From an uncultured Robiginitalea sp. (GTDB lineage: Bacteria; Bacteroidota; Bacteroidia; Flavobacteriales; Flavobacteriaceae): a stretch of DNA of 64,000 nt. Below the pieces are notes generated by a model, which was given only the letters and a program-made list of their open reading frames with translations, did not search any database and had not been told where the DNA came from. Location of the stretch: contig CAZIJW010000016.1 in the NCBI GenBank assembly GCA_964539905.1, positions 606 through 64,605 on the forward strand, given 5' to 3'. How positions within the stretch are numbered: position 1 is the first letter of the stretch; each line of letters starts with the position of its first letter. A program made the position numbers and the translations under genes. Of the stretch, positions 2,044-41,339 are shown piece after piece.

Positions 2044-2727
2044 TCAGAGGGCGCGGAAGGAGTACAATCCCGACAGGGAAGTATTTCCCCGGGCATCCCG
2101 GGAAAGGACCTGCCAGTAATACACCCCGCCCGGGGTTACCGGCACCCTGAATTGGCTTGCCGGATGGTTCAGGGTCGTTATCAGGGTGAGGGCAGAAGGG
2201 TCTTCCCCCAGATACACCTCGCTTTCCCTCAGGTCATTGTCGACATCGGCCAACTCCCACCGCAACAGGACCTGCCCCTCGCTGTCGGGCAGCACGGAAG
2301 CCCCCGAGGCCGGTTCAAGTACCCGTGCCGGGAAGGGGGGATAGAATTGGGAAGCGCCCGCATTGAAAAACTGCCAGACCGGGCCGGGGGTTTCCTTCCC
2401 GCTTTCCTGGTTGATGGCCGTCACCTGCCAGGAATAGGGCGTCCCTTTCTGCAGGACCACCGCCAGGCTGAGCCCGGAGGTCACCTGCCGCTGGGTGTTT
2501 GACGTCCCCAGGTGGGTTACGACCACTTCATAACGGTCGGCATTGGAGGATGCCTGCCACCTGAAGGTTACCTCGCTGGTGGTCTCGCTAACGGAAACCC
2601 CGGTAACGCAAAGGGAGTTGTTGCCCGGGAAGACCGGGCTCACCGGACCCGGGGCTGCCGGCGGGTCATCCTTGCCACACCCCCACAAAAGGGCCAAGCA
2701 CAGGCCCATGTACAGGATATTTCTCAT
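2044..2727 (-). CDS. Lipoprotein with fibronectin-III/SusE-like beta-sandwich repeats
   Basis: Lipobox LLWGC; two FN3-like segments (TYSWQVTAIN, YYWQVLSRD); 4-nt overlap with upstream protease. Confidence 0.75.
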   Translation of the reverse strand: MRNILYMGLCLALLWGCGKDDPPAAPGPVSPVFPGNNSLCVTGVSVSETTSEVTFRWQASSNADRYEVVVTHLGTSNTQRQVTSGLSLAVVLQKGTPYSWQVTAINQESGKETPGPVWQFFNAGASQFYPPFPARVLEPASGASVLPDSEGQVLLRWELADVDNDLRESEVYLGEDPSALTLITTLNHPASQFRVPVTPGGVYYWQVLSRDARGNTSLSGLYSFRAL

Positions 2728-6512: not shown

Positions 6513-6560
6513 TAACCGGCATTTGCTGCACAAAATACGCCTTTTTATTATTTTGTATAC

Positions 6561-7493
6561 GTGATCACCGTTCAAGGTCTTACCAACTACGACAACCCGC
6601 AGCCCAGTATCGTCACCATTGGAACATTCGATGGGGTACACATCGGGCACCGCAGGATCCTGGAACGGCTCATGGAGGAAGGACAGCGGCTGCACCTGCA
6701 GGCAACCCTGCTCACCTTTTTCCCCCACCCCAGGATGGTCCTCCAGAAAGACCGGCAGATCAAACTCCTGAACACCATTGAGGAGAAGTCCGACATCCTC
6801 GGCCAGCTCGGCCTTGACCGCCTGGTCATACATCCCTTCACCAGAAAATTTTCCCGCCTTACCGCCACGGAATTTGTTCGCGATATCCTGGTCGGCAGGC
6901 TGCAGGCCAAAAAGGTGATCATCGGCTACGACCATCGGTTCGGGAGGAACCGCAATGCGAGTATTGAAGATTTAAGGAGTTTCGGGAACCTCCTCGGGTT
7001 TGAAGTGGAAGAGATCCCGGCCCAGGAGGTCGACGAGGTCTCGGTAAGCTCCACCAAGATCCGAACCGCCCTGGAAGCCGGGGACCTTGAAACAGCCAAC
7101 GCCTACCTGGGTTATGCCTATATGCTCTCCGGCACCGTGGAGCGGGGCAAAGGCCTGGGGCGCGACCTGGGGTTCCCCACGGCCAACCTGAAGGTCGGGG
7201 CCGACTACAAGCTCATCCCCGCGGGGGGGGTATACCTCATCCGCTGTGACCTTGGCGGACGGGAGGTCTTCGGGATGATGAACATCGGCACCAACCCCAC
7301 CGTAGACGGCAGCCGCCAGCACATCGAGGTCCATTTTTTCGAGTACCGGGGCGACCTCTACGGCGCTTCCCTCAGGGTCCATTTGCTCAGCCGCCTGCGG
7401 GATGAACAAAAGTTCGCTTCCCTGGAGGCGCTGAAAGCCCAACTGGGCCGCGACCAGGCCCGGGCACGGGAGCTCATCGGAAAACGGCCATGA
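6561..7493 (+). CDS. ribF: Bifunctional riboflavin kinase / FAD synthetase
   Basis: TIGTFDGVHIGH, IGYDHRFG, VSSTKIR, LGFPTAN, NIGTNPT, IEVHFF. Confidence 0.97.
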   Translation: MITVQGLTNYDNPQPSIVTIGTFDGVHIGHRRILERLMEEGQRLHLQATLLTFFPHPRMVLQKDRQIKLLNTIEEKSDILGQLGLDRLVIHPFTRKFSRLTATEFVRDILVGRLQAKKVIIGYDHRFGRNRNASIEDLRSFGNLLGFEVEEIPAQEVDEVSVSSTKIRTALEAGDLETANAYLGYAYMLSGTVERGKGLGRDLGFPTANLKVGADYKLIPAGGVYLIRCDLGGREVFGMMNIGTNPTVDGSRQHIEVHFFEYRGDLYGASLRVHLLSRLRDEQKFASLEALKAQLGRDQARARELIGKRP

Positions 7494-25504: not shown

Positions 25505-27993
25505 AAGAAGGCGAAAAACCAACCCTGGAAGCCCTGGTAGGGCAGGCAAAACAGTGGTTCCGCAGCCAGGGGTGGGAACCCTTCCCCTTCCAGGAGCAAA
25601 CCTGGGAGGCCTTCCTTCAGGGGAAGCACGGGCTGCTCAATGCGCCTACGGGCAGCGGGAAGACCTATGCCCTGTGGTTTCCCATCCTGCTCCAACACCT
25701 CAGGGAACACCCCGATGCCAGGGAACGCCCCCGCCCGGGCCTGAAAGCCATCTGGGTGACGCCCCTCAGGGCTTTGAGCCAGGAAATCCGGCAGTCGGCG
25801 GAGCGGATCACGTCAGACCTGGAAATCCCCTTTTCCGTGGGAATCCGCACCGGGGACACCCCACAGGCGGAAAGGGCCCGGCAGCGCAAGGCCATGCCCG
25901 ACCTGCTGATCACCACCCCGGAAAGCCTGCAGCTGTTGCTGGCCACCCCGGGGTACGCCAAAATCTTCAAATCGTGTTACGCCGTGGTGGTCGATGAATG
26001 GCACGAACTGTTGGGCAGCAAGCGCGGGGTGCAGATGGAACTCGCCCTTTCCCGCCTTAAAAGCGTCTGCCCGGCCTTTCGGATCTGGGGGATTTCCGCT
26101 ACCATCGGCAACCTGGAGCAGGCCCGGGAGGTGCTCCTCGGGCCGGGTTCTGAAGCCCTTCAAAACTCCACCCTGATCCGGGCGCGGCTAAACAAGAAGA
26201 TCACCGTCAAAAGCCTGCTGCCCGAGCGGATGGAGACCTTCCCCTGGAGGGGGCACCTCGGGCTGCACCTGCTGGAAGCGGTAATGCCCATCCTCCGGGA
26301 AAGCAAAACCACCCTGATCTTTACCAATACCCGCAGCCAGTGCGAGATCTGGTTCCAGAAACTCCTGGAACACCACCCGGAACTGGCCGGGGAAATCGCC
26401 ATGCACCACGGGAGTATCGACAAAGACACCCGCCTGTGGGTGGAACAGGCCATCCGCCGCGAAAGCCTGAGGGCCGTGGTGTGCACCTCCAGCCTGGACC
26501 TGGGCGTTGACTTCGCCCCGGTGGAAACCGTCGTACAGATCGGCGGGCCCAAAGGGGTGGCCCGCTTCCTGCAACGGGCAGGCCGCAGCGGGCACCGACC
26601 CGGGAAGGAGAGCCGCATCTATTTCCTGCCCACCCACGCCATTGAACTGGTGGAGGCGGCCGCCCTGCAGCGCACCGTGGAGGGGGAAGGGGTGGAAGAC
26701 CGCATCCCCTACCTGAACAGTTTCGACGTCCTGGCCCAGTACCTGACCACCCTGGCCGTTTCCGACGGCTTCCGGCCCGAAGAAACCTATCGGGAAGTCA
26801 TACAGACCTTTTGCTTCCAGGCCATGACGCGGGACCAGTGGGAATGGCTGCTGAACTTCCTGGTCCTGGGCAGCCAAAGCCTGCAGACCTATGACGAATA
26901 CAAAAAGGTGGAACGCCTGGAGGACGGGCTTTTAAAGGTAACCGACCGGGGGGTGGCCATGCGGCACCGGTTCCAGATCGGCACCATTGTGGGCGATGCC
27001 GACCTGGTGGTGCGCTACCAGAAGGGCGGCTATATCGGCACCATCGAAGAGTGGTTCATCTCCCAACTGCAGCAGGGCGATGTCTTTACCTTTGCCGGGC
27101 GCAACCTGGAGTTCCTCCGCATCCGCGAAATGCAGGCGCTGGTGCGAAATACCTCGAAAAAGTCGGGGAAGGTACCCAGCTGGATGGGCGGAAGGCTCAC
27201 CCTTTCGGCCCAGATGTCGCAACTGTTGCGGGAGGAACTGTACTCGGCCTCCCTCCCCCCGGAGGAGCAGTCGGAGGAGATCCGGGCTTTGGCCCCTCTC
27301 TTTGCGCGGCAGCGCATGGAAAGCATCGTGCCGGGCCCCCGGGAATTCCTTATCGAAACCTTTAAGACGCGGGAAGGATGCCACCACCTTTTCTATCCGT
27401 TCGAAGGGCGCTTCGTGCACGAGGCCATGGCCAGTCTGTTAAGCTACCGCATCAGCCTGCTTTCGCCCATCACGTTTTCCCTGGCCTACAACGACTACGG
27501 GTTTGAACTGCTCTCCGACCAGGAAGTGGACATCGGCATGGTGCTGGACAATGACCTGCTGAGCCCCCAGTACCTGATGGACGACTTGCAGAAAAGCCTC
27601 AATGCCACTGAAATGGCCCGGAGGAAATTCCGCGATATCGCCGTGATCAGCGGGCTGGTCTTTACCGGATACCCCAATAAAGGCATCAAAATGAAGCACT
27701 TGCAAAGCAATTCCCAGCTGCTCTTTGAGGTTTTTCGCGACTGCGAACCCGACCACCTCCTTTTCCAGCAGGCCTTCCGGGAAACCTTCGAGCACCAGCT
27801 GGAAGAAGGCCGGCTCCGCCAGGCCCTGGAGCGCATCGCCACCCAGGAGGTGGTGTGGAAGGCCTGTGAAAGCCCCACCCCCTTCTCCTTCCCCATCATC
27901 ACCGACCGGCTTCGGGAGAAGCTTTCCAGCGAAAAACTGGCCGACCGCATCCGCCGGATGACCCGGGCCCTTACCCGCCCCAAAAAACGCTGA
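25501..27993 (+). CDS. Lhr-core DEXH-box helicase (ligase-associated)
   Basis: APTGSGKT, TTPESL, VVDEWH, SATIGN, HHGS, SSLDLGVD, QRAGRSGH. Confidence 0.93.
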   Translation: MKEGEKPTLEALVGQAKQWFRSQGWEPFPFQEQTWEAFLQGKHGLLNAPTGSGKTYALWFPILLQHLREHPDARERPRPGLKAIWVTPLRALSQEIRQSAERITSDLEIPFSVGIRTGDTPQAERARQRKAMPDLLITTPESLQLLLATPGYAKIFKSCYAVVVDEWHELLGSKRGVQMELALSRLKSVCPAFRIWGISATIGNLEQAREVLLGPGSEALQNSTLIRARLNKKITVKSLLPERMETFPWRGHLGLHLLEAVMPILRESKTTLIFTNTRSQCEIWFQKLLEHHPELAGEIAMHHGSIDKDTRLWVEQAIRRESLRAVVCTSSLDLGVDFAPVETVVQIGGPKGVARFLQRAGRSGHRPGKESRIYFLPTHAIELVEAAALQRTVEGEGVEDRIPYLNSFDVLAQYLTTLAVSDGFRPEETYREVIQTFCFQAMTRDQWEWLLNFLVLGSQSLQTYDEYKKVERLEDGLLKVTDRGVAMRHRFQIGTIVGDADLVVRYQKGGYIGTIEEWFISQLQQGDVFTFAGRNLEFLRIREMQALVRNTSKKSGKVPSWMGGRLTLSAQMSQLLREELYSASLPPEEQSEEIRALAPLFARQRMESIVPGPREFLIETFKTREGCHHLFYPFEGRFVHEAMASLLSYRISLLSPITFSLAYNDYGFELLSDQEVDIGMVLDNDLLSPQYLMDDLQKSLNATEMARRKFRDIAVISGLVFTGYPNKGIKMKHLQSNSQLLFEVFRDCEPDHLLFQQAFRETFEHQLEEGRLRQALERIATQEVVWKACESPTPFSFPIITDRLREKLSSEKLADRIRRMTRALTRPKKR

Positions 27994-28026
27994 TTCCCGG
28001 GGGCACTTGCCAACGCCCTATTTTGA

Positions 28027-28034
28027 TACCTTTG
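28027..28034 (+). promoter_or_regulatory. -7 element (TACCTTTG) immediately before the PdeM start codon
   Basis: Exact consensus 4 nt upstream of ATG 28039; TTG at 28007-28009. Confidence 0.55.
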
Positions 28035-28038
28035 CCCC

Positions 28039-28695
28039 ATGACCCATACCCTGGAATTCGGAGGGGAACTGCTGGAACTGCACCCCTGGGGGGCCCTGTA
28101 CTGGAAACGGGAATCCCTCCTGATCGTCAGCGATGTACACTTCGGAAAGGTAACCCACTTCCGGAAGCACGGCGCGGCCGTACCCCCAAAGGCCCTGGAG
28201 CGGAATTTCCTGCGGATGGATCGCCTGGTTGCGGTTTTCAAACCCGCACGGGTTTGTTTCCTCGGCGACCTGTTCCACTCGCACCTCAACCGGGAATGGG
28301 ACCTGTTCAGCCAATGGGCCGGCAGGTGCCCGGCTGCCCTGGAACTGGTTTTGGGGAACCACGACATCCTCTCCCCCACCCTGTATGAAGCCCTGGGGAT
28401 ACGTTGCGGGGAATCCTTCGAAGAAGGGCCGTTCCGCCTTACCCACCACCCGATGGACGCCTTTGAAGGCTTCAATATCGCCGGGCACGTGCACCCGGCC
28501 GTTCGCCTGAAAGGCCCCGGGCGGCAACAGCTGCGGCTACCCTGTTTCTTCGTCAGGGGGCGCCAGCTGATCCTGCCGGCCTTCGGGGCGTTTACGGGCA
28601 GCCATGTGCTGGAACCCCGAAAAGGCGACCGCGCCTTCGCCCTTGCGGGGGAAGCCGTGATCGCGCTGGAAGAAGCTGCGACGGGAACCCCCTGA
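28039..28695 (+). CDS. pdeM: Ligase-associated metallophosphoesterase/endonuclease (PdeM/MPE)
   Basis: SDVHFGK, LGDLFH, GNHD, THHP, GHVHP, LPAFG. Confidence 0.9.
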   Translation: MTHTLEFGGELLELHPWGALYWKRESLLIVSDVHFGKVTHFRKHGAAVPPKALERNFLRMDRLVAVFKPARVCFLGDLFHSHLNREWDLFSQWAGRCPAALELVLGNHDILSPTLYEALGIRCGESFEEGPFRLTHHPMDAFEGFNIAGHVHPAVRLKGPGRQQLRLPCFFVRGRQLILPAFGAFTGSHVLEPRKGDRAFALAGEAVIALEEAATGTP

Positions 28696-28738
28696 CCGGA
28701 AATTTGGGGCAGGTTTTGCCGGGGCGGGAAATGCCTTG

Positions 28739-28746
28739 TATTTTTG
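28739..28746 (+). promoter_or_regulatory. -7 element (TATTTTTG) for mfd
   Basis: Exact consensus; it implies the true start is the downstream TTG at 28765. Confidence 0.55.
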
Positions 28747-28764
28747 CACAAATTTTATGGCCTT

Positions 28765-31700
28765 TTGAGTCTGGAAAACATCCGGAAGCGTTTTACACAG
28801 GCCCCTGCTTTCAGGGATCTACAGGAGGCGCTTGCCCGGCCCCAATGCCTTATCAGGTTAACCGGCCCCAGCGGCTCCGCCCTTTCTTTCCTGGCGGCCG
28901 AATCGTTCCGGGAACAGCAACTCCCGTTTTTACTGGTGCTGGACGACAAGGAAGAAGCCGCGTACCACCTGAACGACCTCGAGCAACTCCTCGGGCCCCA
29001 GGAAGTGCTCTTCTACCCGGGGAGTTACCGCAGGCCCTACGAGATCGAAGAAACGGACAACGCCAACGTCCTGCTGCGGGCAGAAGTGCTCAACCGGATC
29101 AATTCCCGGAAGAAGCCTGCCCTGATCGTGAGCTACCCCGATGCCCTTTTTGAAAAGGTGGTCACCCGGAAACAACTCGACAAGAATACCCTCAAGGTCC
29201 ATACCGGCGATACGATCTCCCTCGATTTCCTCAATGAGGTACTCTTCGAATACCACTTCAAACGGGTGGATTTTGTGACGGAACCAGGGGAATTCTCCGT
29301 GCGCGGCGGCATCGTGGATGTGTTCTCCTTTTCCCACGACGAGCCCTATCGGATCGAGTTTTTCGGGGAAGAAGTAGACAGCATCCGCACCTTTGACGTG
29401 GAGAGCCAGCTCTCTACCGACCGGGTGAAGAAAATCTCCATTATCCCCAACCTGGCCGACAAGGTCTTCCTTGAGGTGCGGGAATCGTTCCTGGACTATA
29501 TTTCCCCTACCACCGTCCTCCTCCTGAAAAACCAGGCCCTGTGCGAAGGGCGCCTCGACCAGCTCTTCGCAAAAGCCCTGGAAGCCTACGAAAAAACCAG
29601 CGGGGAAGTCCGCCATGCCCAGCCGGAAACCCTTTTCCTGAGCGGGGCGCAACTGGGCGACGCCATCAGGAAGTTCCGACTGGTCGGCCTGGAAGGCCCG
29701 TTGCCGGAAGGTGCCGTGGAGGTCGCGCTGCCTACCCGCCCCCAACCCGCCTTCAACAAGCATTTTGAACTGTTGCTGGATACCCTGAAAAAAAACCACC
29801 GGGAAGGGATGGAAAACTACCTTTTCTGCGCCTCGGAGCAACAGGCCAGGAGGTTTCACGACATTTTCGGGGAAATCGGGCAGGAGGTGCCGTACACCAC
29901 GGTCGTGCAACCGCTGTACCAGGGGTTTGAAGCCCCGGGCCTCGGGCTCTGCTGCTACACCGACCACCAGATTTTCGAGCGGTACCACCGCTTCCACCTG
30001 CGCAACGGATACGCCAAAAAACAGGCGATCACCCTGAAAGACCTCAACAAGCTGGAGGTAGGGGATTACGTCACCCATATCGACCACGGGATCGGGAAAT
30101 TCGGGGGGTTGCAGAAAATCGAGGTGGAAGGCAGGAAACAGGAAGCCATCAAACTGGTGTACGGCGACCGCGATATCCTCTACGTGAGCATCCATTCCCT
30201 CCACAAGATCGCCAAATACAACGGCAAGGACGGCACCACCCCCAAAATCTACAAACTGGGCTCCGGGGCCTGGAAAAAACTCAAGCAAAAGACCAAAAGC
30301 CGGGTCCGGGAGATCGCCTTTGACCTGATACAGCTCTACGCCAAAAGGCGACTCGAAAAAGGTTTCGCGTACGGGCCCGACAGTTACCTCCAACACGAAC
30401 TGGAAGCTTCCTTCCTCTTTGAGGATACCCCAGACCAGAGCGCGGCCACGGCAGACATCAAAAAAGATATGGAAAGCCCGCAACCCATGGACCGCCTGGT
30501 TTGCGGCGATGTGGGGTTTGGGAAGACCGAAGTAGCCATAAGGGCCGCCTTCAAGGCCGTGGATAATGGAAAGCAGGTGGCCGTACTGGTCCCGACCACG
30601 ATCCTGGCCTTCCAGCATTTCCGGACCTTTTCGCAGCGCCTGGGCGACATGCCCGTTACGGTGGACTACCTCAACCGGTTTCGCACCGCCAGGGAACGCA
30701 AGGACCTGCTCGAGCGGCTGGCCTCCGGAACGCTCGATATCGTTATCGGGACCCACCAGCTGGTGGGCAAAAACGTCGCCTTCAAAGACCTTGGCCTGCT
30801 GATTGTGGACGAGGAACAAAAATTTGGCGTGGCGGTCAAGGACAAGCTCAAGTCCCTGAAAGAAAATGTAGACGTGCTGACCCTGACGGCCACCCCCATC
30901 CCGAGGACCCTGCAATTCAGCCTCATGGCCGCCCGGGACCTCTCCGTCATCAACACGCCCCCCCCCAACCGATACCCCATAGAAAGCCATGTCATCCGGT
31001 TTGACGAGGCGGCGATCCGCGATGCGATCTCCTATGAGATCCAACGGGGCGGGCAGGTGTTTTTCGTGCACAACCGGATCGAGAACATCCGCGAAGTCGC
31101 CGGGATGCTGCAGCGCCTGGTCCCGGATGCCAAAATCGGCATCGGGCACGGGCAAATGGAAGGGAAACGCCTGGAACAGCTCATGCTTTCCTTTATGAAC
31201 GGGGAGTTCGACGTGCTGGTGTCGACCACCATCGTCGAAAGCGGGCTCGACGTTACCAATGCCAATACGATCTTTATCAACAATGCCAACAATTTCGGCC
31301 TGAGCGACCTCCACCAGATGCGGGGCCGGGTAGGGCGGAGCAACAAAAAGGCGTTCTGCTATTTCATCACCCCGCCCTATGAAGTGATGACCCCGGAAGC
31401 GCGCAAGCGGATGCAGGCCCTGGAGCAATTCACCGAGCTGGGCAGCGGCTTCCATATTGCCATGAAGGATTTGGAAATCAGGGGGGCGGGTGACCTGCTG
31501 GGAGGGGAACAAAGCGGCTTTATCAACGAAATCGGCTTTGAAACCTACCAGAAAATCCTGGCAGAGGCCGTGGAGGAACTCAAGGAGAATGAATTCAAAG
31601 AGCTGTACCGCGGGGCATCTGAAGGCAAAAAGGAATATGTGAAGGACATTCAGGTCGACACCGATTTTGAACTCCTCTTCCCAGACGACTATATCAACAA

Positions 31701-32130
31701 CGTTTCGGAGCGGCTCAGCCTGTACACGGAACTGAATGAACTGAAGGACGATGCCGGGTTGGCCCTCTTCCGGGAACACCTTTCAGACCGTTTCGGGCCC
31801 CTTCCCGCACAGGCGGAGGACCTGCTCGATTCCGTCCGCCTGAAATGGATGGCCGCCGGCATGGGCCTTGAGAAACTGGTGTTGAAACAGGGGAAATTGC
31901 TGGGCTACTTCCTGGGGGAGCAGGATGCGCCATTCTACCAGTCAGAAGGCTTTTCCCGCCTGTTGCAAACCGTACAGCGCTACCCGGGGCAATTCCGGCT
32001 GAAGGAAAAACAAACCCGGCAGGGGTTGCGGCTGATGCTGGTCCTGGACCCGGTGAAATCGATCGGGCAGGCCCTGGAAAAAATCGCCCCCCTCCACGCG
32101 GCCTTTGAAGGCGTCCCCCAGACCGCCTAA
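28765..32130 (+). CDS. mfd: Transcription-repair coupling factor
   Basis: UvrB-like N-domain, GDYVTHIDHGIG RID, CGDVGFGKTEVA, IVDEEQKFG, TATPIPRT, QMRGRVGRS, DLEIRGAG; start uncertain (28744 or 28765). Confidence 0.96.
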   Translation: MSLENIRKRFTQAPAFRDLQEALARPQCLIRLTGPSGSALSFLAAESFREQQLPFLLVLDDKEEAAYHLNDLEQLLGPQEVLFYPGSYRRPYEIEETDNANVLLRAEVLNRINSRKKPALIVSYPDALFEKVVTRKQLDKNTLKVHTGDTISLDFLNEVLFEYHFKRVDFVTEPGEFSVRGGIVDVFSFSHDEPYRIEFFGEEVDSIRTFDVESQLSTDRVKKISIIPNLADKVFLEVRESFLDYISPTTVLLLKNQALCEGRLDQLFAKALEAYEKTSGEVRHAQPETLFLSGAQLGDAIRKFRLVGLEGPLPEGAVEVALPTRPQPAFNKHFELLLDTLKKNHREGMENYLFCASEQQARRFHDIFGEIGQEVPYTTVVQPLYQGFEAPGLGLCCYTDHQIFERYHRFHLRNGYAKKQAITLKDLNKLEVGDYVTHIDHGIGKFGGLQKIEVEGRKQEAIKLVYGDRDILYVSIHSLHKIAKYNGKDGTTPKIYKLGSGAWKKLKQKTKSRVREIAFDLIQLYAKRRLEKGFAYGPDSYLQHELEASFLFEDTPDQSAATADIKKDMESPQPMDRLVCGDVGFGKTEVAIRAAFKAVDNGKQVAVLVPTTILAFQHFRTFSQRLGDMPVTVDYLNRFRTARERKDLLERLASGTLDIVIGTHQLVGKNVAFKDLGLLIVDEEQKFGVAVKDKLKSLKENVDVLTLTATPIPRTLQFSLMAARDLSVINTPPPNRYPIESHVIRFDEAAIRDAISYEIQRGGQVFFVHNRIENIREVAGMLQRLVPDAKIGIGHGQMEGKRLEQLMLSFMNGEFDVLVSTTIVESGLDVTNANTIFINNANNFGLSDLHQMRGRVGRSNKKAFCYFITPPYEVMTPEARKRMQALEQFTELGSGFHIAMKDLEIRGAGDLLGGEQSGFINEIGFETYQKILAEAVEELKENEFKELYRGASEGKKEYVKDIQVDTDFELLFPDDYINNVSERLSLYTELNELKDDAGLALFREHLSDRFGPLPAQAEDLLDSVRLKWMAAGMGLEKLVLKQGKLLGYFLGEQDAPFYQSEGFSRLLQTVQRYPGQFRLKEKQTRQGLRLMLVLDPVKSIGQALEKIAPLHAAFEGVPQTA

Positions 32131-33211: not shown

Positions 33212-33389
33212 AGGCTTTGAATCATTAATGTATTTCATCGAAAAAAAGTGCATTTCACCGCAATTTTATAGCACAGCCAATATCTTTAGGTGGCATACAT
33301 CGAAAACCCGATAAAAAAAATACTAAGCCCCGAACACCTGGCGTTCCACTGTAGCCCCAATTACATGGACGCCGAGAAAGCCTACTACT

Positions 33390-34898
33390 ATGGAATACTT
33401 TGTGAATTGTAACACGGCCTCCCTGGCGCCGTATACAACTCCGCTGGACCGCTCCCGGGTACAGCACCTTTTCAGGCGGGTTGGATTCAGCGCCACGATC
33501 GCCCGCGTCAACCAGGCCATAGGCCAGGACGCCGGAACGCTGGTTGACCAAATCATCGGCGAGGCCCTGAACCTGCCCCCCCAGGCCGCCCCACCCTGGG
33601 CAGGCTGGAACCGCGACAACTACCCGGAAGATGACGACCTCGCCCGGCAGACCATCCGCACCCAGACATCCAGCTGGGCCCTGGACTATACCCGCGGCCT
33701 GCTGAACAACACCCTGCGCGACCGGTTGAGCTTTTTCTGGAGCAACCACTTTGTTACGGAGCTCGACTTTTACGAAAGTCCGGGATTTTTACATGAATAC
33801 ACCGAGTGCCTGCAGCGCAACGCCCTGGGTAACTTCAAGACCTTTGTTTCGGAAATCGGCCTCACCAATGCCATGCTGTTTTATCTGGACGGTGCCTTCA
33901 ACAATGGCAACAACCCCAATGAAAACTATGCCAGGGAGCTCTATGAACTCTTTACCCTCGGGGAGGGCAACGGGTATACCGAAGAAGACGTAATTGAAAC
34001 GTCCAGGGCCCTTTCCGGCTACACGGAGCGGGGGGAGGTCCGCTGGACCCCGGTCACCTTTGACCCGGACAGCTTCGATGCCGGCACCAAGACCATCCTG
34101 GGCCAGACCGGGAACTGGGGGTACGACGATGTAATCGACATCCTCTTTGAGCAACGCGCGAACGAAATTGCCCGGTTTATCTGCGGGAAGCTTTACGAAT
34201 TTTTTGTGCACCCCGATTCGGATGACCTCGAAGGCAATGCCCAGCAGATCATCTCAGGGATGGCCAGCACGTTTATCTCAAACAACTTTGAAATCGCCCC
34301 GGTACTGTCGCAGCTATTTAAAAGCCAGCATTTCTTCGACGAGAACGCCATTGGGGTCATCATCAAAAGCCCGTTTGACCTGTTCCTGAATTTTATCAAC
34401 GAAAGCGGCTTTGCCTATACCGACACCACCCTGTCCTTTGCGATGGAATCGTCGCGCCTGCTCGGGCAGGAAGTATTCGACCCCTATGACGTGGCTGGCT
34501 GGCAACGCGACCGCAGCTGGATCAATACCAATTTTATCATTGGGCGGTGGCTGACCAGCGAAGTGCTTATCCAGGGATTCTTCCAGGATAACCCCGAACA
34601 ATTCCGCAACCTGGCCATGGAAGCTGTTGGCCCGGCCGAGAGCAATACGAGCAACCCGGAAACGGTGGTGGCCGCCCTGGTCAACAAATTCCTGCCAAAA
34701 GGGTTGCTGACCCCCCAGGATTTTGAGAATGCCCTTTCTGTTTTTAAAATTGAAGATGTGCCTGGCAATTATTACGGCCCCGACTATGTGGATGGAGGCC
34801 TGGGCCTGTGGATGCTGGCCGTGAGCATGGAGGTACCCCAACAGGTATTCCTCCTGCTGATGCACCTTTCCCGCCAACCCGAATTCCAGTTAAAATAA
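33390..34898 (+). CDS. DUF1800 family protein
   Basis: HLFRRVGF, FFWSNHF, AMLFYLD, PNENYARELYELFTLG, YTEEDV..SRALSG; no signal peptide. Confidence 0.9.
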   Translation: MEYFVNCNTASLAPYTTPLDRSRVQHLFRRVGFSATIARVNQAIGQDAGTLVDQIIGEALNLPPQAAPPWAGWNRDNYPEDDDLARQTIRTQTSSWALDYTRGLLNNTLRDRLSFFWSNHFVTELDFYESPGFLHEYTECLQRNALGNFKTFVSEIGLTNAMLFYLDGAFNNGNNPNENYARELYELFTLGEGNGYTEEDVIETSRALSGYTERGEVRWTPVTFDPDSFDAGTKTILGQTGNWGYDDVIDILFEQRANEIARFICGKLYEFFVHPDSDDLEGNAQQIISGMASTFISNNFEIAPVLSQLFKSQHFFDENAIGVIIKSPFDLFLNFINESGFAYTDTTLSFAMESSRLLGQEVFDPYDVAGWQRDRSWINTNFIIGRWLTSEVLIQGFFQDNPEQFRNLAMEAVGPAESNTSNPETVVAALVNKFLPKGLLTPQDFENALSVFKIEDVPGNYYGPDYVDGGLGLWMLAVSMEVPQQVFLLLMHLSRQPEFQLK

Positions 34899-34908
34899 AC
34901 CTACTGCT

Positions 34909-36609
34909 ATGTGCAATACCCATGTAACACCGCCAAATCTCCGGCTCACTGCCCATGACCAGGAACACAAGTACTGGAGCCGCCGTTCCTTTTTACAGGC
35001 CCTGGGCATCGCGGGGTCCGGGTCCATGATGCTGGGCAGCAACGTGCTGACCGCTTCGGCCCCATCGCCCCTTACCGCGGCCATTGCCGGGGCGGAGGGA
35101 GACGGCATCCTGATCCTCATCCGCCTGTCAGGGGGGAATGACGGGTTGAGCACCGTGATCCCCATCGAGCAGTATGACGCCTATGCCAACGCCCGCCCGA
35201 ACATTTATATCCCTGAAAGCAAGGTGCTTAAACTCACAGACTCCTATGGGGTCCCCTCCTATATGCAGGCCCTGGAAGGCCTTTGGGGGGAAGGGCAGTT
35301 CAAGGCCGTCCATGGGGTCGGCTATGAAAACCAAAGCCTGTCGCATTTTACGGGGTCCGACATCTACGCCAATACGGACCTCACCACCACGGGGTTTTCC
35401 GGATTGAATACGGGGTGGATGGGGCGCCACTTCGAAAACCTGTACCCCGACTACCTGATCAACCCCCCGGCAGCCCCCGCCGCCATCCAGATCGGGAATT
35501 TCGGGAACCTGGTTTTCCAGGGAGAAGAAACCAACTACGCCTTTGTGACCTCCAACATCGACCAACTGGAGGAAATTGCGGAATCGGGGGTGCAGTACAG
35601 CCTCGATGCCCAGCTCTTCGGGGATTGCATGTACGGCGACCAGCTCCGCTTCCTCAGGGGGGTGGCGAACACCACCTACGAATATGCCGGCGTCATCCAC
35701 CAGGCCTATGAGCGCGGACAAAACCAGGTGGAATACCAGGACAACGGCTTCGCCCGCCAGCTGGCATTGCTCGCCCGGCTGATCAAGGGGAACCTGGGCA
35801 CCCGGGTCTATATGATCTCCATGGGGGGCTTCGACACCCACGGCAACCAGCCCCTGGCGCACGAGCGCCTGATGACCAACCTTTCGGTGGCGGTTAGGGA
35901 TTTCTACGAAGACCTGACCTTTACCCAGCAGGACGATAAGGTCCTCAGCATGACCTTTTCCGAATTCGGCCGCCGGATTTTCGAAAACGGGTCCAACGGC
36001 ACCGACCACGGGAAGGCGGCCCCCACCCTGTTTTTCGGTTCCGGGCTCAACGGCAGCGCTTTTGTGGGGGAACACCCCTCCCTGAGCGACCCGAACGGCC
36101 GGGGGAACCTGGAGTACACCATGGATTTCCGCGACCTGTACGCTACGGTCCTGGCCGAATGGCTTTGCGTACCCATCCCCCTGGTGGAACAACACCTGCT
36201 GGGGCACGCCTACAACCCCGTAAACCTCGGGTTCAATTGCAGTGGGGTGGAATTCCCCGACATCGCCTATAACGACGAGCCCTTTACGCCCCCGACCAGC
36301 CCGGGCGACAACCCGAATACCCCTCCCCCGGGGGACCCGTTGCTGGACGCCATCGTACACCGCCCGTTCTACCCGACCGATTCGAACCCGCATATCCACG
36401 TGGAACTGCCCTTTACGGCCCATGTCGACATCACCCTGTTCAACATCCTGGGCCAGAAAGTAGCCACCCTTTATAACGAGATGATGTTCGAGGGCCAAAT
36501 GGACCTCAACATCCGCGACCGGGTGCCGCACCACCTGGCTACCGGGAAATACATCTACCGCATTGAGGTACAGGACCGCCGCCTCGCCAAGTCGATTATG
36601 GTGGCCTGA
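34909..36609 (+). CDS. DUF1501 family protein with Tat signal and T9SS C-terminal sorting domain
   Basis: SRRSFLQALG twin-Arg; LSGGNDGL, SHF, GGFDTH, SEFGRR, GTDHG, DFRDLYAT; CTD ITLFNILGQKVATL...LATGKYIYRI. Confidence 0.88.
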   Translation: MCNTHVTPPNLRLTAHDQEHKYWSRRSFLQALGIAGSGSMMLGSNVLTASAPSPLTAAIAGAEGDGILILIRLSGGNDGLSTVIPIEQYDAYANARPNIYIPESKVLKLTDSYGVPSYMQALEGLWGEGQFKAVHGVGYENQSLSHFTGSDIYANTDLTTTGFSGLNTGWMGRHFENLYPDYLINPPAAPAAIQIGNFGNLVFQGEETNYAFVTSNIDQLEEIAESGVQYSLDAQLFGDCMYGDQLRFLRGVANTTYEYAGVIHQAYERGQNQVEYQDNGFARQLALLARLIKGNLGTRVYMISMGGFDTHGNQPLAHERLMTNLSVAVRDFYEDLTFTQQDDKVLSMTFSEFGRRIFENGSNGTDHGKAAPTLFFGSGLNGSAFVGEHPSLSDPNGRGNLEYTMDFRDLYATVLAEWLCVPIPLVEQHLLGHAYNPVNLGFNCSGVEFPDIAYNDEPFTPPTSPGDNPNTPPPGDPLLDAIVHRPFYPTDSNPHIHVELPFTAHVDITLFNILGQKVATLYNEMMFEGQMDLNIRDRVPHHLATGKYIYRIEVQDRRLAKSIMVA

Positions 36610-36634
36610 CCCTGACGTTGCCCTGACGCGAATT

Positions 36635-36693
36635 CCCCCGGACACCGGATGCCCCCTGATCATTAGATCAGTCCGGTGCTTCGGGGGTTTTTT
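36635..36693 (+). terminator. Long hairpin/intrinsic terminator after the DUF1800-DUF1501 operon
   Basis: CCCCCG..CACCGGA..CTGATC-ATTA-GATCAG-TCCGGTG..CGGGGG followed by a T-run. Confidence 0.75.
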
Positions 36694-36734
36694 CTTTCCC
36701 CCCGGCGGGTGCTGGGCCCCCGGCCAAATTTGGT

Positions 36735-36742
36735 TATTTTTG
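36735..36742 (+). promoter_or_regulatory. -7 element (TATTTTTG) for metG
   Basis: Exact consensus 20 nt before the ATG. Confidence 0.65.
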
Positions 36743-36762
36743 CAGAACCATAACCAAAGCAA

Positions 36763-38844
36763 ATGCCGACTCCTCCCGGTCCGTTTAAGCGGACCACCGT
36801 TACCGCCGCCCTTCCCTACACCAACGGGCCCATCCATATCGGCCACCTGGCCGGGGTGTATGTGCCTGCCGACATCTATTGCCGTTACCTTCGCCTCCGG
36901 GATGCCGACGTCCTGTTTGTCTGCGGGAGCGATGAGCACGGGGTGGCCATCCCCATGAAGGCGAAAAAGGAAGGAATCAGCCCCCGGGAACTGATCGATA
37001 AGTACCACCACATCATTAAGGATTCCTTTGCCCGCTTTGGTATTTCCTTCGACAACTATTCCCGTACCTCCGCGGGGATCCACCATGAAACCGCCTCGGA
37101 ATTCTTCAAAAAACTCTACAGGCAGGGCGATTTTATCGAGGAAACCGGCGAACAGCTGTACGACGCAGAGGCCGGGCAATTCCTGGCCGACCGTTTTGTG
37201 ACGGGTACCTGCCCGAAATGCGGGTACGAGCAGGCGTACGGCGACCAGTGCGAGCAATGCGGCACCTCCCTGAACGCCACCGACCTGATCGGGCCCCGCT
37301 CGGTCCTCACCGGGGCCACCCCTGTGCTGAAAAAGACCAAACACTGGTTCCTTCCCCTGGACCGTTATGAAGGGTTCCTGAAAGCATGGATCCTGGAAGG
37401 GCACCAGGCCGACTGGAAACCCAACGTATACGGGCAATGCAAATCCTGGATTGACGATGGCCTGAAACCCAGGGCCGTTACCCGCGACCTGGACTGGGGC
37501 ATCCCGGTACCCGTGGAAGGGGCAGAAGGCAAGGTGCTTTACGTGTGGTTTGACGCCCCCATCGGCTATATTTCCTCGACCCGGGAATGGGCCCAGCGGG
37601 AAGGCAAAGACTGGGAACCCTACTGGAAGGACCCGCAAACCCGGCTGCTGCACTTTATCGGGAAAGACAATATCGTATTCCACTGCATCATTTTCCCCAG
37701 CATGCTGAAGGCCCATGGCGGCTACATCCTCCCCGACAACGTGCCGGCCAATGAATTCCTGAACCTCGAGGGGCAAAAGCTTTCCACCTCGCGCAACTGG
37801 GCGGTGTGGCTTCATGAATACCTGGAAGATTTCCCCGACATGCAGGATGTGCTCCGGTACGTGCTGACGGCCAATGCCCCGGAAACCAAGGACAACGATT
37901 TTACCTGGAAGGATTTCCAGGCGCGCAACAACAATGAGCTGGTCGCCATTTTCGGGAACTTCATCAACCGGGTTGCCGTACTCACCCAGAACTATTTCGG
38001 AGGAAAAGTGCCCCCCGCCGGCCCGTTGCAGCAAACAGACCGCGATGCCCTGGGCCAGCTCAGGGAATATCCCGGGCGCATCGGCGATTGCCTGGAACGC
38101 TTCCGCTTTCGGGAGGGCCTGCAGGAAATGATGAACCTCGCCCGGTTGGGCAACAAATACCTGGCGGAAGAAGAGCCCTGGAAAGTCATCAAGGATGACC
38201 CGAAACGGGTAGGCACCATCCTGCATACTGCCCTGCAAATCGCCGGGGCGCTGGCGGTGCTCTCGGAGCCCTTCCTCCCTTTTACGGCCGCAAAACTCCG
38301 CGAAATACTGGGGTTTGAGGCCCTCGACACCCCACCCGACTGGGAATCCGTGGGGCGCGAAGCGGCCCCGGTGCTGCCGGAAGGGCATTCGCTCGCGGAA
38401 TCACGGCTCCTGTTCCGCAAAATAGAAGACGCCGAAATCGAGGCGCAACTGGAAAAACTGGAAAACACCAAAAAACAGAATGCCATGTCAGATACCCCCC
38501 TGCCGGCCCAAAAGGAAACCATCGTTTACGACGATTTTGCGAAAATGGACCTCCGGGTCGGCACCATCCTGAAAGCCGAAAAAATGCCCAAGGCCAACAA
38601 ACTCATGGTCATGCAGGTAGATACGGGCCTCGACACCCGCACCATCGTCTCGGGCATTGCCGAACACTTTACCCCGGAGCAACTGGTGGGCAAAAAAGTC
38701 ACCGTGCTGGTGAACCTGGCCCCACGGGCCCTGAGGGGGGTGGAAAGCCAGGGGATGATCCTGCTGGCGGAAAGGGCGGACGGAAAACTGGTCTTCGTGG
38801 GCCCTGAAGACCCCGATACGGGTAGCGGGTCGCCCATAACCTGA
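36763..38844 (+). CDS. metG: Methionine--tRNA ligase
   Basis: [19 protein letters not shown], Zn knuckle CPKC..CEQC, RDLDWG, KLSTS, C-terminal tRNA-binding domain. Confidence 0.97.
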
Positions 38845-38963: not shown

Positions 38964-41339
38964 ATGACTGCGATAAAAGCCTGCCTGCGGTATTGGGCCC
39001 TCCTTGCCTTCATTCCCCATGCACTCGCCCAACCACAGGACGTGCTGGACCAGATTCTCGATGACTTCACCCTGTATAGCGAACTTCCCCGGGAAGTCGC
39101 CTATGTGCACCTGAACAAATCGATCTTTATCAAGGGGGAAAACCTCGGTTTCAAGGCGTATGTCCTCGACAAAGGAACCAAAAAGCCCTCCCAGGAAACC
39201 CGGAACCTCTACTGTGTGTTGGCCGACTCCAATGACCGCCTGATAAAGTCGCAGATGGTCCGCATTACCGGGGGGGTCGGGCAGGGCGTTTTTGAGCTGG
39301 ACAGCCTTTTCCATACCGGGAAATATACCTTCAAGGCCTACACGAACTGGATGCGCAATTTTTCGGAAGCAAACTATTTTCAACAGTCGATCGACGTCCT
39401 GGACCCGGAAACCCACCCCACCCTGCCCGTTACCCCCAGCCCCGGTGACCTGGAAGTCCAAATCCTCCCGGAGGGGGGCCATGCCCTGGCCGGGGTCCCC
39501 TCGGTATATGGCATCATCATCAAGGATACAGGGGGCTATGGGGTCCCCGGGGTGGAAGGGCGCATTACGGACGGGTCCGGGACAGAAATTACCCGATTTA
39601 AAGTGAACCCTTTGGGGATCGGGCGCATCGGGCTGACCCCCCTCAAAGGAACCTCGTATTTTGCCCACTTCCGCTATGGAAACCGCGAGCACCGCGTTCC
39701 CTTCCCCCCGGCAAAAACCGAAGGGGTGGGCCTCCGCCTGGCCGAACTCAATGACTGGGTTGCCCTGGAACTGAGCGCCCGTTTCGGGGATCCGGGCTGG
39801 GAGCAAGCCCCCTTTTTCCTGACCGTCCACAATGGGGACAACCTGAAGGGGGTCCAGGTTTCCTTCCGCGATAGCCTGTCCCAACTAAAGGTGTTCCCAA
39901 AAGGAGACCTCTACCCCGGCATGAATGTGTTTACCCTGTTCGACCCGACCGGAAAACCGCTGCTGGAGCGCCTTTTCTTCAACCCGACCGGGCTGGCCTT
40001 TCATGAAAATATCGTCGCGTACCCCAGCCGGGTGGGTGATTCCCTGAACATCCGCCTGGGAATCCCCGGCCTGCGGGCGGGCACCTTTAACAGCCTGAGC
40101 GTTTCCGTCCTTCCCGCAGGAAGCCAGTCAAACCCGGGCCACCACAGCCTGGGCTCCTACACCCTGTTGCAACCTTACGTGCGGGGCCCCGTCGAGAATG
40201 CCCGGTATTATTTTCAGGAGGGAAGTGCGGTAAAGCGCCGCGAACTGGATGACCTGCTGCTCACCCAGGGCTGGAGCAGTTACGACTGGAACACCGTTTT
40301 CAACCACCCGCCTCAATACCGCTTCGATTTTGAAAAAGGGGTTTCCTACACGGTCGGGTTCAATGCGCGCAAAAGCGATGCCTTTTACATCTTCCCGACC
40401 CTGAACAACCCCTCGCAGCTCCTGGAACTACAGCCCGGACAGGAGGAATTCACCGTCGAAAACTTCTATCCCCTGGAAGGGGAAAAACTGGCGCTTACCG
40501 AAATCCGTGGAACCATTAAGTCGAGCCCAGCCGGGGCCTATGTGCATTTCAAGCCCGTGGGGGTCCCCCGGATGGATTCCCATAAGGCCGCCCTTTTACC
40601 CAACCGGCTGGGACCCCGGTTCGCAGCAATAGAAGTGCCCCCCATCTCCTTCGAGAACCTGGAAAAACTGCAGATACTCGATGAAGTGGTAGTGTCTGAA
40701 CCAAGGAGGATCCAACGCCTTGAACGCTTGCGGGACCGTTCCCCGGGTCGGGTGGACATCTTCGCGAAAGACGACCCCAGGCGGATGATGTTCCTCGACG
40801 CCTACCTGAGCGGACGCGGGTATAGAGTCATAGAAGGGCCTGGAACCCTCGATATTCTGGCCGGAAACCCCAATTCCCCAAGTAACCCCCGCCCGATCGT
40901 CTACCTCGACGGGGTCCTGCTTACCGATTTTGACCTCCTTTGGCGGTTCCGCCTCGATATTGTGGATTATATAGAGATAAATCCCACAGGGATTGGCTCG
41001 GGGATTTATGGCGGGGGAGGCGTCATCCGCATCGTGACAGACCCGTCGATAAGCCTGGCCGGCCCGGCCCCGAAGGCATTCCAGTCTTATGAAATCCCCC
41101 TGGCCTTTGGGCAGGACAAAGAGTTTTACACCCCGGTGTATTCCTCTTACCAGAGCGATTTCTTCAGGGCTTTTGGCACCCTTGGCTGGGTGCCGGACCT
41201 TCAGGCAGACCCCGCGGGGGCCATTGCATTTAAGGCTAAGCCCCACGGCGTGGAGGCGCTGGAGCTTTATGTGGAAGGGATCATCAACGGGAATGAATTC
41301 GTCTCAAGCCGGGTTTTGCTCGAAGCGAAGGCCCCATAG
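38964..41339 (+). CDS. Large secreted protein with MG2-like N-terminus and TonB-plug-like C-terminal region
   Basis: Signal peptide; EVAYVHLNK..FIKGE.LGFKAYV; DDLLLTQGW..YDW; PIVYLDGV...VDYIEI plug-like; FYTPVY. Confidence 0.6.
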   Translation: MTAIKACLRYWALLAFIPHALAQPQDVLDQILDDFTLYSELPREVAYVHLNKSIFIKGENLGFKAYVLDKGTKKPSQETRNLYCVLADSNDRLIKSQMVRITGGVGQGVFELDSLFHTGKYTFKAYTNWMRNFSEANYFQQSIDVLDPETHPTLPVTPSPGDLEVQILPEGGHALAGVPSVYGIIIKDTGGYGVPGVEGRITDGSGTEITRFKVNPLGIGRIGLTPLKGTSYFAHFRYGNREHRVPFPPAKTEGVGLRLAELNDWVALELSARFGDPGWEQAPFFLTVHNGDNLKGVQVSFRDSLSQLKVFPKGDLYPGMNVFTLFDPTGKPLLERLFFNPTGLAFHENIVAYPSRVGDSLNIRLGIPGLRAGTFNSLSVSVLPAGSQSNPGHHSLGSYTLLQPYVRGPVENARYYFQEGSAVKRRELDDLLLTQGWSSYDWNTVFNHPPQYRFDFEKGVSYTVGFNARKSDAFYIFPTLNNPSQLLELQPGQEEFTVENFYPLEGEKLALTEIRGTIKSSPAGAYVHFKPVGVPRMDSHKAALLPNRLGPRFAAIEVPPISFENLEKLQILDEVVVSEPRRIQRLERLRDRSPGRVDIFAKDDPRRMMFLDAYLSGRGYRVIEGPGTLDILAGNPNSPSNPRPIVYLDGVLLTDFDLLWRFRLDIVDYIEINPTGIGSGIYGGGGVIRIVTDPSISLAGPAPKAFQSYEIPLAFGQDKEFYTPVYSSYQSDFFRAFGTLGWVPDLQADPAGAIAFKAKPHGVEALELYVEGIINGNEFVSSRVLLEAKAP

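Follow-up and report, generated by a model that had tools for sequence, protein, structure and literature searches.

A DUF1800-DUF1501 gene pair of Robiginitalea combines a putative Tat signal and a type IX secretion sorting domain on one product with a signal-less partner

Two adjacent genes in a 64,000-nucleotide stretch of DNA from an uncultured Robiginitalea sp. (GenBank assembly GCA_964539905.1, contig CAZIJW010000016.1, positions 606 to 64,605; the whole stretch is referred to below as the window, and positions are counted from its first letter) encode proteins of the DUF1800 and DUF1501 families. The upstream gene (33390..34898, + strand) specifies a DUF1800 protein of 502 amino acids, which is matched end to end by Pfam PF08811 (E=7.6e-95) and carries no export signal. 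The downstream gene (34909..36609, + strand) specifies a DUF1501 protein of 566 amino acids (Pfam PF07394, E=4.3e-23), in which a twin-arginine translocation (Tat)-type signal, a domain assigned to the alkaline-phosphatase/sulfatase superfamily, a Pro-rich linker, and a type-A C-terminal sorting domain (CTD) of a type IX secretion system (T9SS) follow one another. The assignments of DUF1501 as a Tat-type precursor and of its tail as a T9SS type-A CTD are both well supported, the former by sequence comparison and the latter also by structural modelling. We give about an even chance to the view that the two proteins form a two-subunit extracytoplasmic enzyme, of which DUF1501 would be exported through Tat and then through T9SS, and DUF1800 would cross the inner membrane as a Tat hitchhiker.

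The N-terminus of DUF1501 was compared with the Tat consensus S/T-R-R-x-F-L-K, which is located near the N-terminus and followed by an uncharged, moderately hydrophobic h-region of at least ca. 13 residues and a small-x-small cleavage site. The motif S-R-R-S-F-L-Q occupies residues 24-30 (34978..34998, + strand), where R25 and R26 are encoded by cgc cgt at 34981-34986 within WSRRSFLQALG. When 31 diverse DUF1501 proteins were aligned (from Flavobacteriaceae, Saprospiraceae, Chitinophagales, Rhodothermales, Ignavibacteria, Chlorobiota, Verrucomicrobia, Planctomycetes, and Betaproteobacteria), R25, R26, and F28 were invariant, on a par with the catalytic-looking motifs of the family. Eighty loci, containing relatives of DUF1800 in species-representative genomes, were fetched, and 76 of the 77 DUF1501 genes scanned in them matched a stricter regular expression, RR-x-hydrophobic-hydrophobic; the exception, in locus L038 (MNRRDFAAM), retained RR-x-F. 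Pfam TAT_signal (PF10518) matched 11 of the 31 aligned family members (best E=1.5e-4). Downstream of the arginines, a run of 36 uncharged residues follows, which closes with TASA-PSP and includes the weakly hydrophobic h-region and c-region (residues 31-51, ALGIAGSGSMMLGSNVLTASA; 34999..35061, + strand). On the Kyte-Doolittle scale, the h-region averages 1.07, a weak hydrophobicity that is typical of Tat rather than of general secretory (Sec) signals. Cleavage is probable after TAS (TAS-A) or after ASA (ASA-P), within residues 48-52, the exact position being ambiguous, with the ASA site putting P52 at +1. A Tat system has been reported in the genome of another member of the Flavobacteriaceae, Tenacibaculum maritimum (PMC5561996).

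The segment that precedes the arginines, the n-region of the signal peptide (residues 1-23, MCNTHVTPPNLRLTAHDQEHKYW; 34909..34977, + strand), is Cys/His-rich, with three His and one Cys arranged as MCxxH ... HDxEHxxW. Residues C2, H16, D17, E19, H20, and W23 were invariant in 35 orthologues, and the pattern H-x-x-[DE]-H-x-x-W-x-RR is common to Flavobacteriaceae, Saprospiraceae, and Rhodothermales. Among the fetched loci, a Cys/His-rich DUF1501 n-region was present in L001-L032, L034, L035, L040, L046, and L061. Conservation of this kind is unexpected for a segment that is cleaved off, and may reflect a binding site for a chaperone, a partner protein, or a metal. An intermolecular Cys/His metal site, to which DUF1800 would contribute C7 and DUF1501 its n-region, was considered and set aside as speculation only, C7 being absent from the DUF1800 proteins of Saprospiraceae and Rhodothermales that are paired with a His-rich n-region.

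At the other end of DUF1501, the Pro-rich linker (residues 455-477, NDEPFTPPTSPGDNPNTPPPGDP; 36271..36339, + strand), which varies in length and sequence among orthologues, leads into the predicted CTD (residues 478-566, ca. 89 amino acids; 36340..36606, + strand). In an AlphaFold2 model of the whole protein, residues ca. 470-566 were the sole confident part (predicted local distance difference test score, pLDDT, 74-87), and formed a beta-sandwich of seven strands. A Foldseek search with this part returned the CTD of Flavobacterium johnsoniae NucA in its T9SS complex (8glk_D, TMt 0.62) together with 8gl8_D and 8gl6_D, all of which are CTDs of substrates bound to the SprA translocon, and also the CTD of mirolase (8qb1_A). 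The DUF1501 family profile likewise matched the NucA CTD (8glk_D, E=0.0019), as well as the CTDs of a GH167 enzyme, gingipains, and mirolase. With TIGR04183, matches at E<=0.01 were obtained for 32 of 35 orthologues, the best of them reaching E=1.4e-5; PF18962 (Por_Secre_tail) matched 16 of the 31 diverse relatives (best E=1.4e-10), and precomputed PF18962 matches exist for many orthologues at 81-83% identity; several relatives contain the canonical motif set QNYPNPFNP...G.Y.YRL...K. All 48 loci with a CTD-bearing DUF1501 belong to the Fibrobacteres-Chlorobi-Bacteroidetes (FCB) group (Bacteroidota, Ignavibacteria, Chlorobiota, and Rhodothermales). DUF1501 proteins of ca. 400 amino acids, without a CTD, are found in Proteobacteria, in bacteria of the Planctomycetes-Verrucomicrobia-Chlamydiae (PVC) group, and in a second, paralogous pair of Bacteroidota. 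The conservation of a Tat signal together with a T9SS tail extends over Flavobacteriaceae, Saprospiraceae, Chitinophagales, Rhodothermales, Ignavibacteria, and Chlorobiota; judged by this distribution, the combination is an old, conserved architecture and not an accident of the window genome.

A second protein with such a tail is encoded in the window at 2724-6935 (- strand). It is a reprolysin-like (M12B) metalloprotease of 1403 amino acids with a proprotein-convertase P-domain, and its C-terminal Por_Secre_tail (PF18962) scores 26.8 bits against a cut-off of 27; by its sequence, it is probably another T9SS cargo of the organism.

The partner gene ends with a TAA at 34896-34898, and the DUF1501 ATG follows at 34909 after a spacer of 10 nt, read directly from the sequence (34899..34908, + strand). 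This tight spacing suggests that the two genes are co-transcribed. DUF1501 lies directly downstream of DUF1800 in 76 of the 80 fetched loci, and adjacent pairs occur in Bacteroidota, Ignavibacteria, Chlorobiota, Rhodothermales, Verrucomicrobia, Planctomycetes, and Proteobacteria. The operon and its 10-nt gap, the RR motif behind a His-containing n-region, the Pro-rich linker before the CTD, and the lack of a recognisable signal on DUF1800 had all been read correctly in the original prediction, which was made from the sequence of the window alone. A longer DUF1800 protein with a hidden signal is excluded, since an in-frame stop codon is present at 33324-33326 and no ATG, GTG, or TTG separates it from position 33390. 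The DUF1800 start is also shared by its orthologues, 114 of 120 of which are exactly 502 amino acids long and begin with MEYFVNCNT. No hydrophobic stretch was detected in residues 1-80, where the maximum Kyte-Doolittle value over 12 residues was 1.0. A short lipoprotein-like signal, MEYFVNC, was examined and rejected, because it has no positively charged n-region, no h-region, and no lipobox, and lies within the predicted fold.

The AlphaFold2 model of DUF1800 (mcf97fc416100), computed from 80 diverse sequences, has a pLDDT of 95 and a predicted template modelling score of 0.93 and presents a mostly alpha-helical single domain. The N-terminus is part of the modelled fold, the pLDDT being below 50 for residues 1-4 only and averaging 98 for residues 11-20. 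A Foldseek search of the PDB with this model returned no neighbour (best E=1.7, TM 0.13), and sequence and profile searches of the PDB with DUF1800 revealed no homologue; as modelled, the fold is without a solved relative. The near-invariant motifs FWxNHF and PNENYARExxELFTLG have the appearance of a functional site, not of a scaffold.

The N-termini of DUF1800 homologues differ between lineages. Sec-like signal peptides were found on DUF1800 in eight proteobacterial loci, for example in Ralstonia (MRIRSTTIFLALAAASALSLQTAHA), and no h-region was detected in any scoreable (non-truncated) FCB or PVC locus with any possible reading of the 5' end. A representative search at E<=0.001 yielded 10,700 DUF1800 proteins (50%-identity cluster representatives). 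Among the 96 scoreable representatives nearest to the window protein, 77 were featureless, three had a full Tat-like signal (P0351, P0363, and P0346), ca. 11 had the RR motif only, and four had a Sec-like signal. RR-only proteins begin with M-[DN]-R-R-x-F-[LF], with no h-region behind it, a start that looks like a decayed or partial Tat signal; they occur in loci L033, L034, L036, L037, L043, L045, and L052, and in representatives P0311, P0338, P0362, P0372, and others. Given the Sec-like, full Tat-like, and RR-only forms among its homologues, the DUF1800 family appears to work outside the cytoplasm and to have a Tat-linked history. The DUF1800 signal has been lost in precisely those lineages in which DUF1800 is invariably followed by the gene for a Tat-bearing DUF1501, which is the pattern predicted by Tat hitchhiking; this circumstantial evidence fits hitchhiking, which is the best available explanation and which we hold about as readily as we doubt it. 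To that extent, the suggestion in the original prediction that DUF1800 is a hitchhiker has gained indirect support.

In CTD-bearing pairs, features at the N-termini of DUF1800 and DUF1501 show a complementary distribution: RR-only DUF1800 proteins were found in 6 of 12 loci whose DUF1501 n-region is short versus 0-1 of 29 loci whose n-region is long and His/Cys-rich, the loci not being phylogenetically independent. This distribution hints that the N-termini of DUF1800 and DUF1501 act together at a targeting step. It is also among the arguments for the main rival of the hitchhiker explanation, which we consider unlikely and in which DUF1800 would be a cytoplasmic maturation or proofreading factor, comparable to TorD, DmsD, or NarJ, that binds the Cys/His-rich n-region and stays behind, DUF1501 alone being exported. 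The tight linkage of the two genes, the missing DUF1800 signal, and the strong conservation of an n-region that is cleaved off, with a motif common across orders, are consistent with such a role. However, the Sec-like signals of Proteobacteria and the full Tat signals of other homologues place the DUF1800 family outside the cytoplasm. Moreover, known signal-binding chaperones are small helical proteins, whereas DUF1800 is large (502 amino acids), highly conserved, and endowed with the enzyme-like invariant motifs FWxNHF and PNENYARE.

The second pair of Bacteroidota comprises a DUF1501 protein of ca. 400 amino acids, with a Tat motif and no T9SS CTD, and a signal-less DUF1800 protein of ca. 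460 amino acids. It was observed in loci L047, L055, L065, L068, L070, L072, L073, L075, L076, and L078, its holders including Maribacter, Tenacibaculum, and Pedobacter, and both kinds of pair were present in Maribacter sp. 2307ULW6-5 (L018 and L047).

Between its signal and the linker, DUF1501 contains stretches of residues that are conserved across phyla. The GGNDG motif (residues 75-79; 35131..35145, + strand) is invariant, and D78 is predicted, by analogy with the alkaline-phosphatase superfamily, to be the first metal ligand after beta-strand 1. S145-H146-F147 (35341..35349, + strand) were invariant in the 31 diverse sequences and include the candidate nucleophile, Ser145. In GGFDTH (residues 306-311; 35824..35841, + strand), D309, T310, and H311 are invariant, and D309 and H311 are predicted metal ligands. 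The segment from EFGR (352-355) through GTDHG (364-368), at 35962..36012 (+ strand), contains the invariant residues E352, F353, G354, R355, N360, G364, T365, D366, H367, and G368, of which D366 and H367 are again predicted to bind metal. The GGFDTH and EFGR motifs, which had been pointed out in the original prediction, are thus present, and their residues D309-H311 and E352-R355 are unchanged across phyla. Sulfatase (PF00884) matched 3 of the 31 DUF1501 relatives (best E=3.4e-5) and DUF229 matched one. PF07394 belongs to the alkaline-phosphatase/sulfatase Pfam clan, and DUF1501 is probably a metal-dependent hydrolase of this superfamily.

In the reading that we favour, DUF1501 would be the catalytic subunit, a metal-dependent hydrolase made with a twin-arginine signal, which would fold in the cytoplasm and cross the inner membrane via Tat. 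DUF1800, all-alpha and without a signal of its own, would bind DUF1501 in the cytoplasm and hitchhike with it across the inner membrane. On the periplasmic side, T9SS would recognise the type-A CTD and move DUF1501 across the outer membrane, where the CTD would be cleaved and DUF1501 either anchored to the surface or released. The original prediction had a cytoplasmically assembled metallo-heterodimer exported by Tat and displayed on the surface by T9SS; a Tat precursor and a CTD are indeed supported by comparison with relatives, and cargo with a type-A CTD usually ends up either on the surface, as in that prediction, or free in the medium. DUF1800 may or may not travel with DUF1501 through T9SS. 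A bolder form of this scheme, which seems to us improbable, has the folded DUF1800-DUF1501 heterodimer crossing both membranes, with DUF1800 piggy-backed on the CTD, and makes the Cys/His-rich n-region (MCxxH...HDxEHxxW-RR) a cytoplasmic docking site or a metal-dependent proofreading site that couples assembly to export. If this were true, the pair would be the first T9SS cargo family to depend on Tat, and DUF1800 the first protein to pass T9SS without a CTD of its own.

Several observations weigh against the favoured export route. All 102 experimentally identified T9SS cargo proteins are Sec-dependent, as opposed to the Tat-type signal of DUF1501, and the T9GPred predictor, which was built on them, accepts only proteins that have a Sec signal and lack a Tat signal (PMC10515386). 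The original prediction had likewise stated that T9SS cargo usually cross the inner membrane via Sec. With known cargo being Sec-dependent, a Tat-to-T9SS route would be without precedent, and no Tat-dependent T9SS substrate was found in the literature searched. With E. coli sequences as queries, neither TatC nor TatA was detected in the 64-kb window or in the fetched loci, and no T9SS core genes were seen in the window. On TIGR01409, the window DUF1501 scored 14.2 bits, below the cut-off of 16.7, its score being probably lowered by the long n-region. The window CTD is divergent, having FYPTDSNP where a PNP motif is usual, and also fell below the curated cut-offs (17.6 versus 23 for TIGR04183, and 14.6 versus 27 for PF18962). 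Of the "typical T9SS CTD" of the original prediction, therefore, the CTD stands, by virtue of orthologues, family profile, and modelled fold, and "typical" does not. As for the enzymatic part of the scheme, the AlphaFold2 model of the DUF1501 catalytic domain, for which 35 close orthologues were aligned, was of low confidence (mean pLDDT 35), and no PDB homologue of this domain was found by sequence or profile search. Because of this low confidence and the absence of a sequence-detectable solved homologue, we infer, rather than observe, the active-site geometry and the roles assigned to individual residues. Finally, where proteobacterial DUF1800 carries a Sec signal, the two proteins are exported separately, and cytoplasmic assembly is thus not obligatory for the family.

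The sub-threshold scores with TIGR01409, TIGR04183, and PF18962 speak for another explanation, according to which the RR motif, the CTD, or both are non-functional as targeting signals here, and DUF1501 is simply an enzyme of the periplasm that is exported by Sec and ends in an Ig-like domain. So does the Foldseek search with the CTD, in which generic Ig-like sandwiches of GH2 enzymes matched at E-values similar to those of the T9SS domains. We nevertheless regard this explanation as very unlikely: R-R-x-F does not vary from phylum to phylum, the h-region has the weak hydrophobicity typical of Tat rather than Sec, and the CTD, located at the extreme C-terminus, is found only in T9SS-bearing lineages and reaches E=1.4e-10 with PF18962 in relatives, while many orthologues at 81-83% identity have precomputed PF18962 matches.

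The use of Sec for DUF1800 and of Tat for DUF1501 in Proteobacteria indicates that co-translocation is not intrinsic to the family. It thereby favours a functional link with independent export, in which DUF1501 would pass through Sec or Tat and then T9SS, and DUF1800 would serve another step of the same pathway from within the cytoplasm, or leave by an unrecognised exit route, with no hitchhiking and no stable complex. This we judge to be rather unlikely, since the loss of the DUF1800 signal is confined to lineages where DUF1800 always has a Tat-bearing DUF1501 beside it, the decayed RR motifs suggest that DUF1800 was once linked to Tat, and the repeated re-purposing of an extracytoplasmic family to the cytoplasm in several phyla is not to be expected. 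Co-export of a cytoplasmically assembled pair through Tat, followed by passage of DUF1501 through T9SS, remains the reading that we prefer.

Downstream of the pair, a terminator scan and folding revealed an intrinsic-terminator-like hairpin followed by a T-run (36635..36693, + strand; stem, 36635-36687). Its folding energy of -37.5 kcal/mol (z = -4.5) was equalled by none of 200 shuffled sequences, in agreement with the strong hairpin previously noted at the end of the operon. The neighbouring genes in the window are housekeeping genes: upstream of the pair lie mfd, a gene for an ACT-like protein, and one for a UPF0102 nuclease, and downstream of it lies metG. The same order (mfd, the ACT-like gene, UPF0102, the pair, and then metG) is seen around the pair in Flavobacteriaceae. 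In the 80 loci as a whole, the gene neighbourhood revealed no recurrent functional partner and no clue to a substrate. The mfd gene (28744-32130 of the window, + strand; loci L001-L016, and L059, L074, and L079) is no more than ca. 5 kb away from the pair in Flavobacteriaceae as well as in Comamonadaceae (Polaromonas and relatives), and in Betaproteobacteria, a RisS/RisA-type (EnvZ/OmpR-like) two-component gene pair is located near the operon and transcribed divergently from it. The proximity of mfd and of RisS/RisA may be a coincidence. Two apparent neighbour "clusters" were discarded as antisense open reading frames (ORFs) of GC-rich genes. The window itself contains an ORF of 1086 amino acids (35128-38388, - strand), antisense to DUF1501 and metG, which was rejected as a base-composition artefact; similar ORFs are present in the GC-rich loci L034, L053, L057, and L058. 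Two further ORFs, at 38964-41339 (+ strand, 791 amino acids) and 27495-28751 (- strand, 418 amino acids), flank the housekeeping block and have no Pfam match at E<=0.001.

The closest relatives of the pair are Robiginitalea proteins, DUF1800 of R. marina being 97% identical to that of the window; across flavobacterial genera, identity amounts to 81-92% for DUF1501 and 73-97% for DUF1800. In one locus (L009, from the chromosome of Maribacter litopenaei), frameshifts appear to disrupt DUF1800, the end of DUF1501, and also metG, which is split into three ORFs; this looks like an assembly error rather than a set of pseudogenes. The DNA of the window was near-complete in microbial-mat metagenome runs; the matching runs were microbial-mat DNA metagenomes only, and no RNA runs holding the window sequence were found.

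Part of this picture is already published. A DUF1800-DUF1501 pair in the same order has been described as a predicted operon (Goncalves et al. 2016, PMC5122149), and a DUF1501 "module" has been reported for PVC bacteria (Kamneva et al. 2012, PMC3542564); the twin-arginine motif of DUF1501 was noted in both papers, neither of which assigns a function to the pair. The published pairs are located next to a horizontally transferred chitin synthase in Proteobacteria (PMC5122149) and occur with PSCyt/PSD partners in PVC bacteria (PMC3542564). They involve DUF1501 proteins of ca. 400 amino acids without a CTD (PMC5122149, PMC3542564), as opposed to the 566 amino acids and T9SS tail of the window protein, and neither paper takes up this tail, a long His/Cys-rich n-region, or the manner in which a signal-less DUF1800 is exported. 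No characterised DUF1501 or DUF1800 protein was found in the literature searched. What appears to be new is the Tat-to-T9SS architecture and its FCB-wide breadth, the pattern of signal loss in DUF1800, the conserved Cys/His n-region, and the lack of a PDB neighbour for the DUF1800 model. Should a Tat-plus-T9SS family be real, T9SS would have to accept proteins that have folded in the cytoplasm, and present predictors would be discarding real T9SS cargo. The signal-less DUF1800 would provide a clean test of a passenger riding Tat, and perhaps T9SS too. The pair is widespread and very conserved, and a functional assignment would put names to a large part of the envelope biology that is now labelled "hypothetical" in bacteria of sea and soil.

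Compared with known systems, DUF1501 resembles type-A cargo of T9SS, such as F. johnsoniae NucA and RemA, gingipains, and mirolase, in ending, behind a flexible linker, in a beta-sandwich of ca. 85 residues that reaches the very C-terminus, and differs from them in that its N-terminal signal is of the Tat rather than the Sec type. Tat hitchhiker pairs include the small and large subunits of [NiFe] hydrogenase, HybO/HybC, as well as DmsA/DmsB and the Streptomyces tyrosinase pair MelC1/MelC2. As in these pairs, the RR signal is present on one subunit and the product of the adjacent gene is signal-less; their complexes assemble before export, which is what we propose for DUF1800-DUF1501. DUF1800 and DUF1501 are, however, unrelated to HybO/HybC, DmsA/DmsB, and MelC1/MelC2, no redox cofactor is evident, and export would continue across the outer membrane. 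A two-step route of this kind is known from Pseudomonas aeruginosa, where PlcH, PlcN, PA3910, and PA4140, largely phosphate-scavenging phosphoesterases, pass through Tat and then through the type II secretion system (T2SS) (PMC4899797). There, as proposed here from sequence, a folded phosphoesterase-type enzyme crosses the inner membrane via Tat and is then handed to a separate outer-membrane system that takes folded cargo. If the proposal is correct, the DUF1800-DUF1501 pair would represent the Bacteroidota counterpart of the Tat-to-T2SS route, with the difference that the outer-membrane step would be performed by T9SS, via a C-terminal sorting domain.

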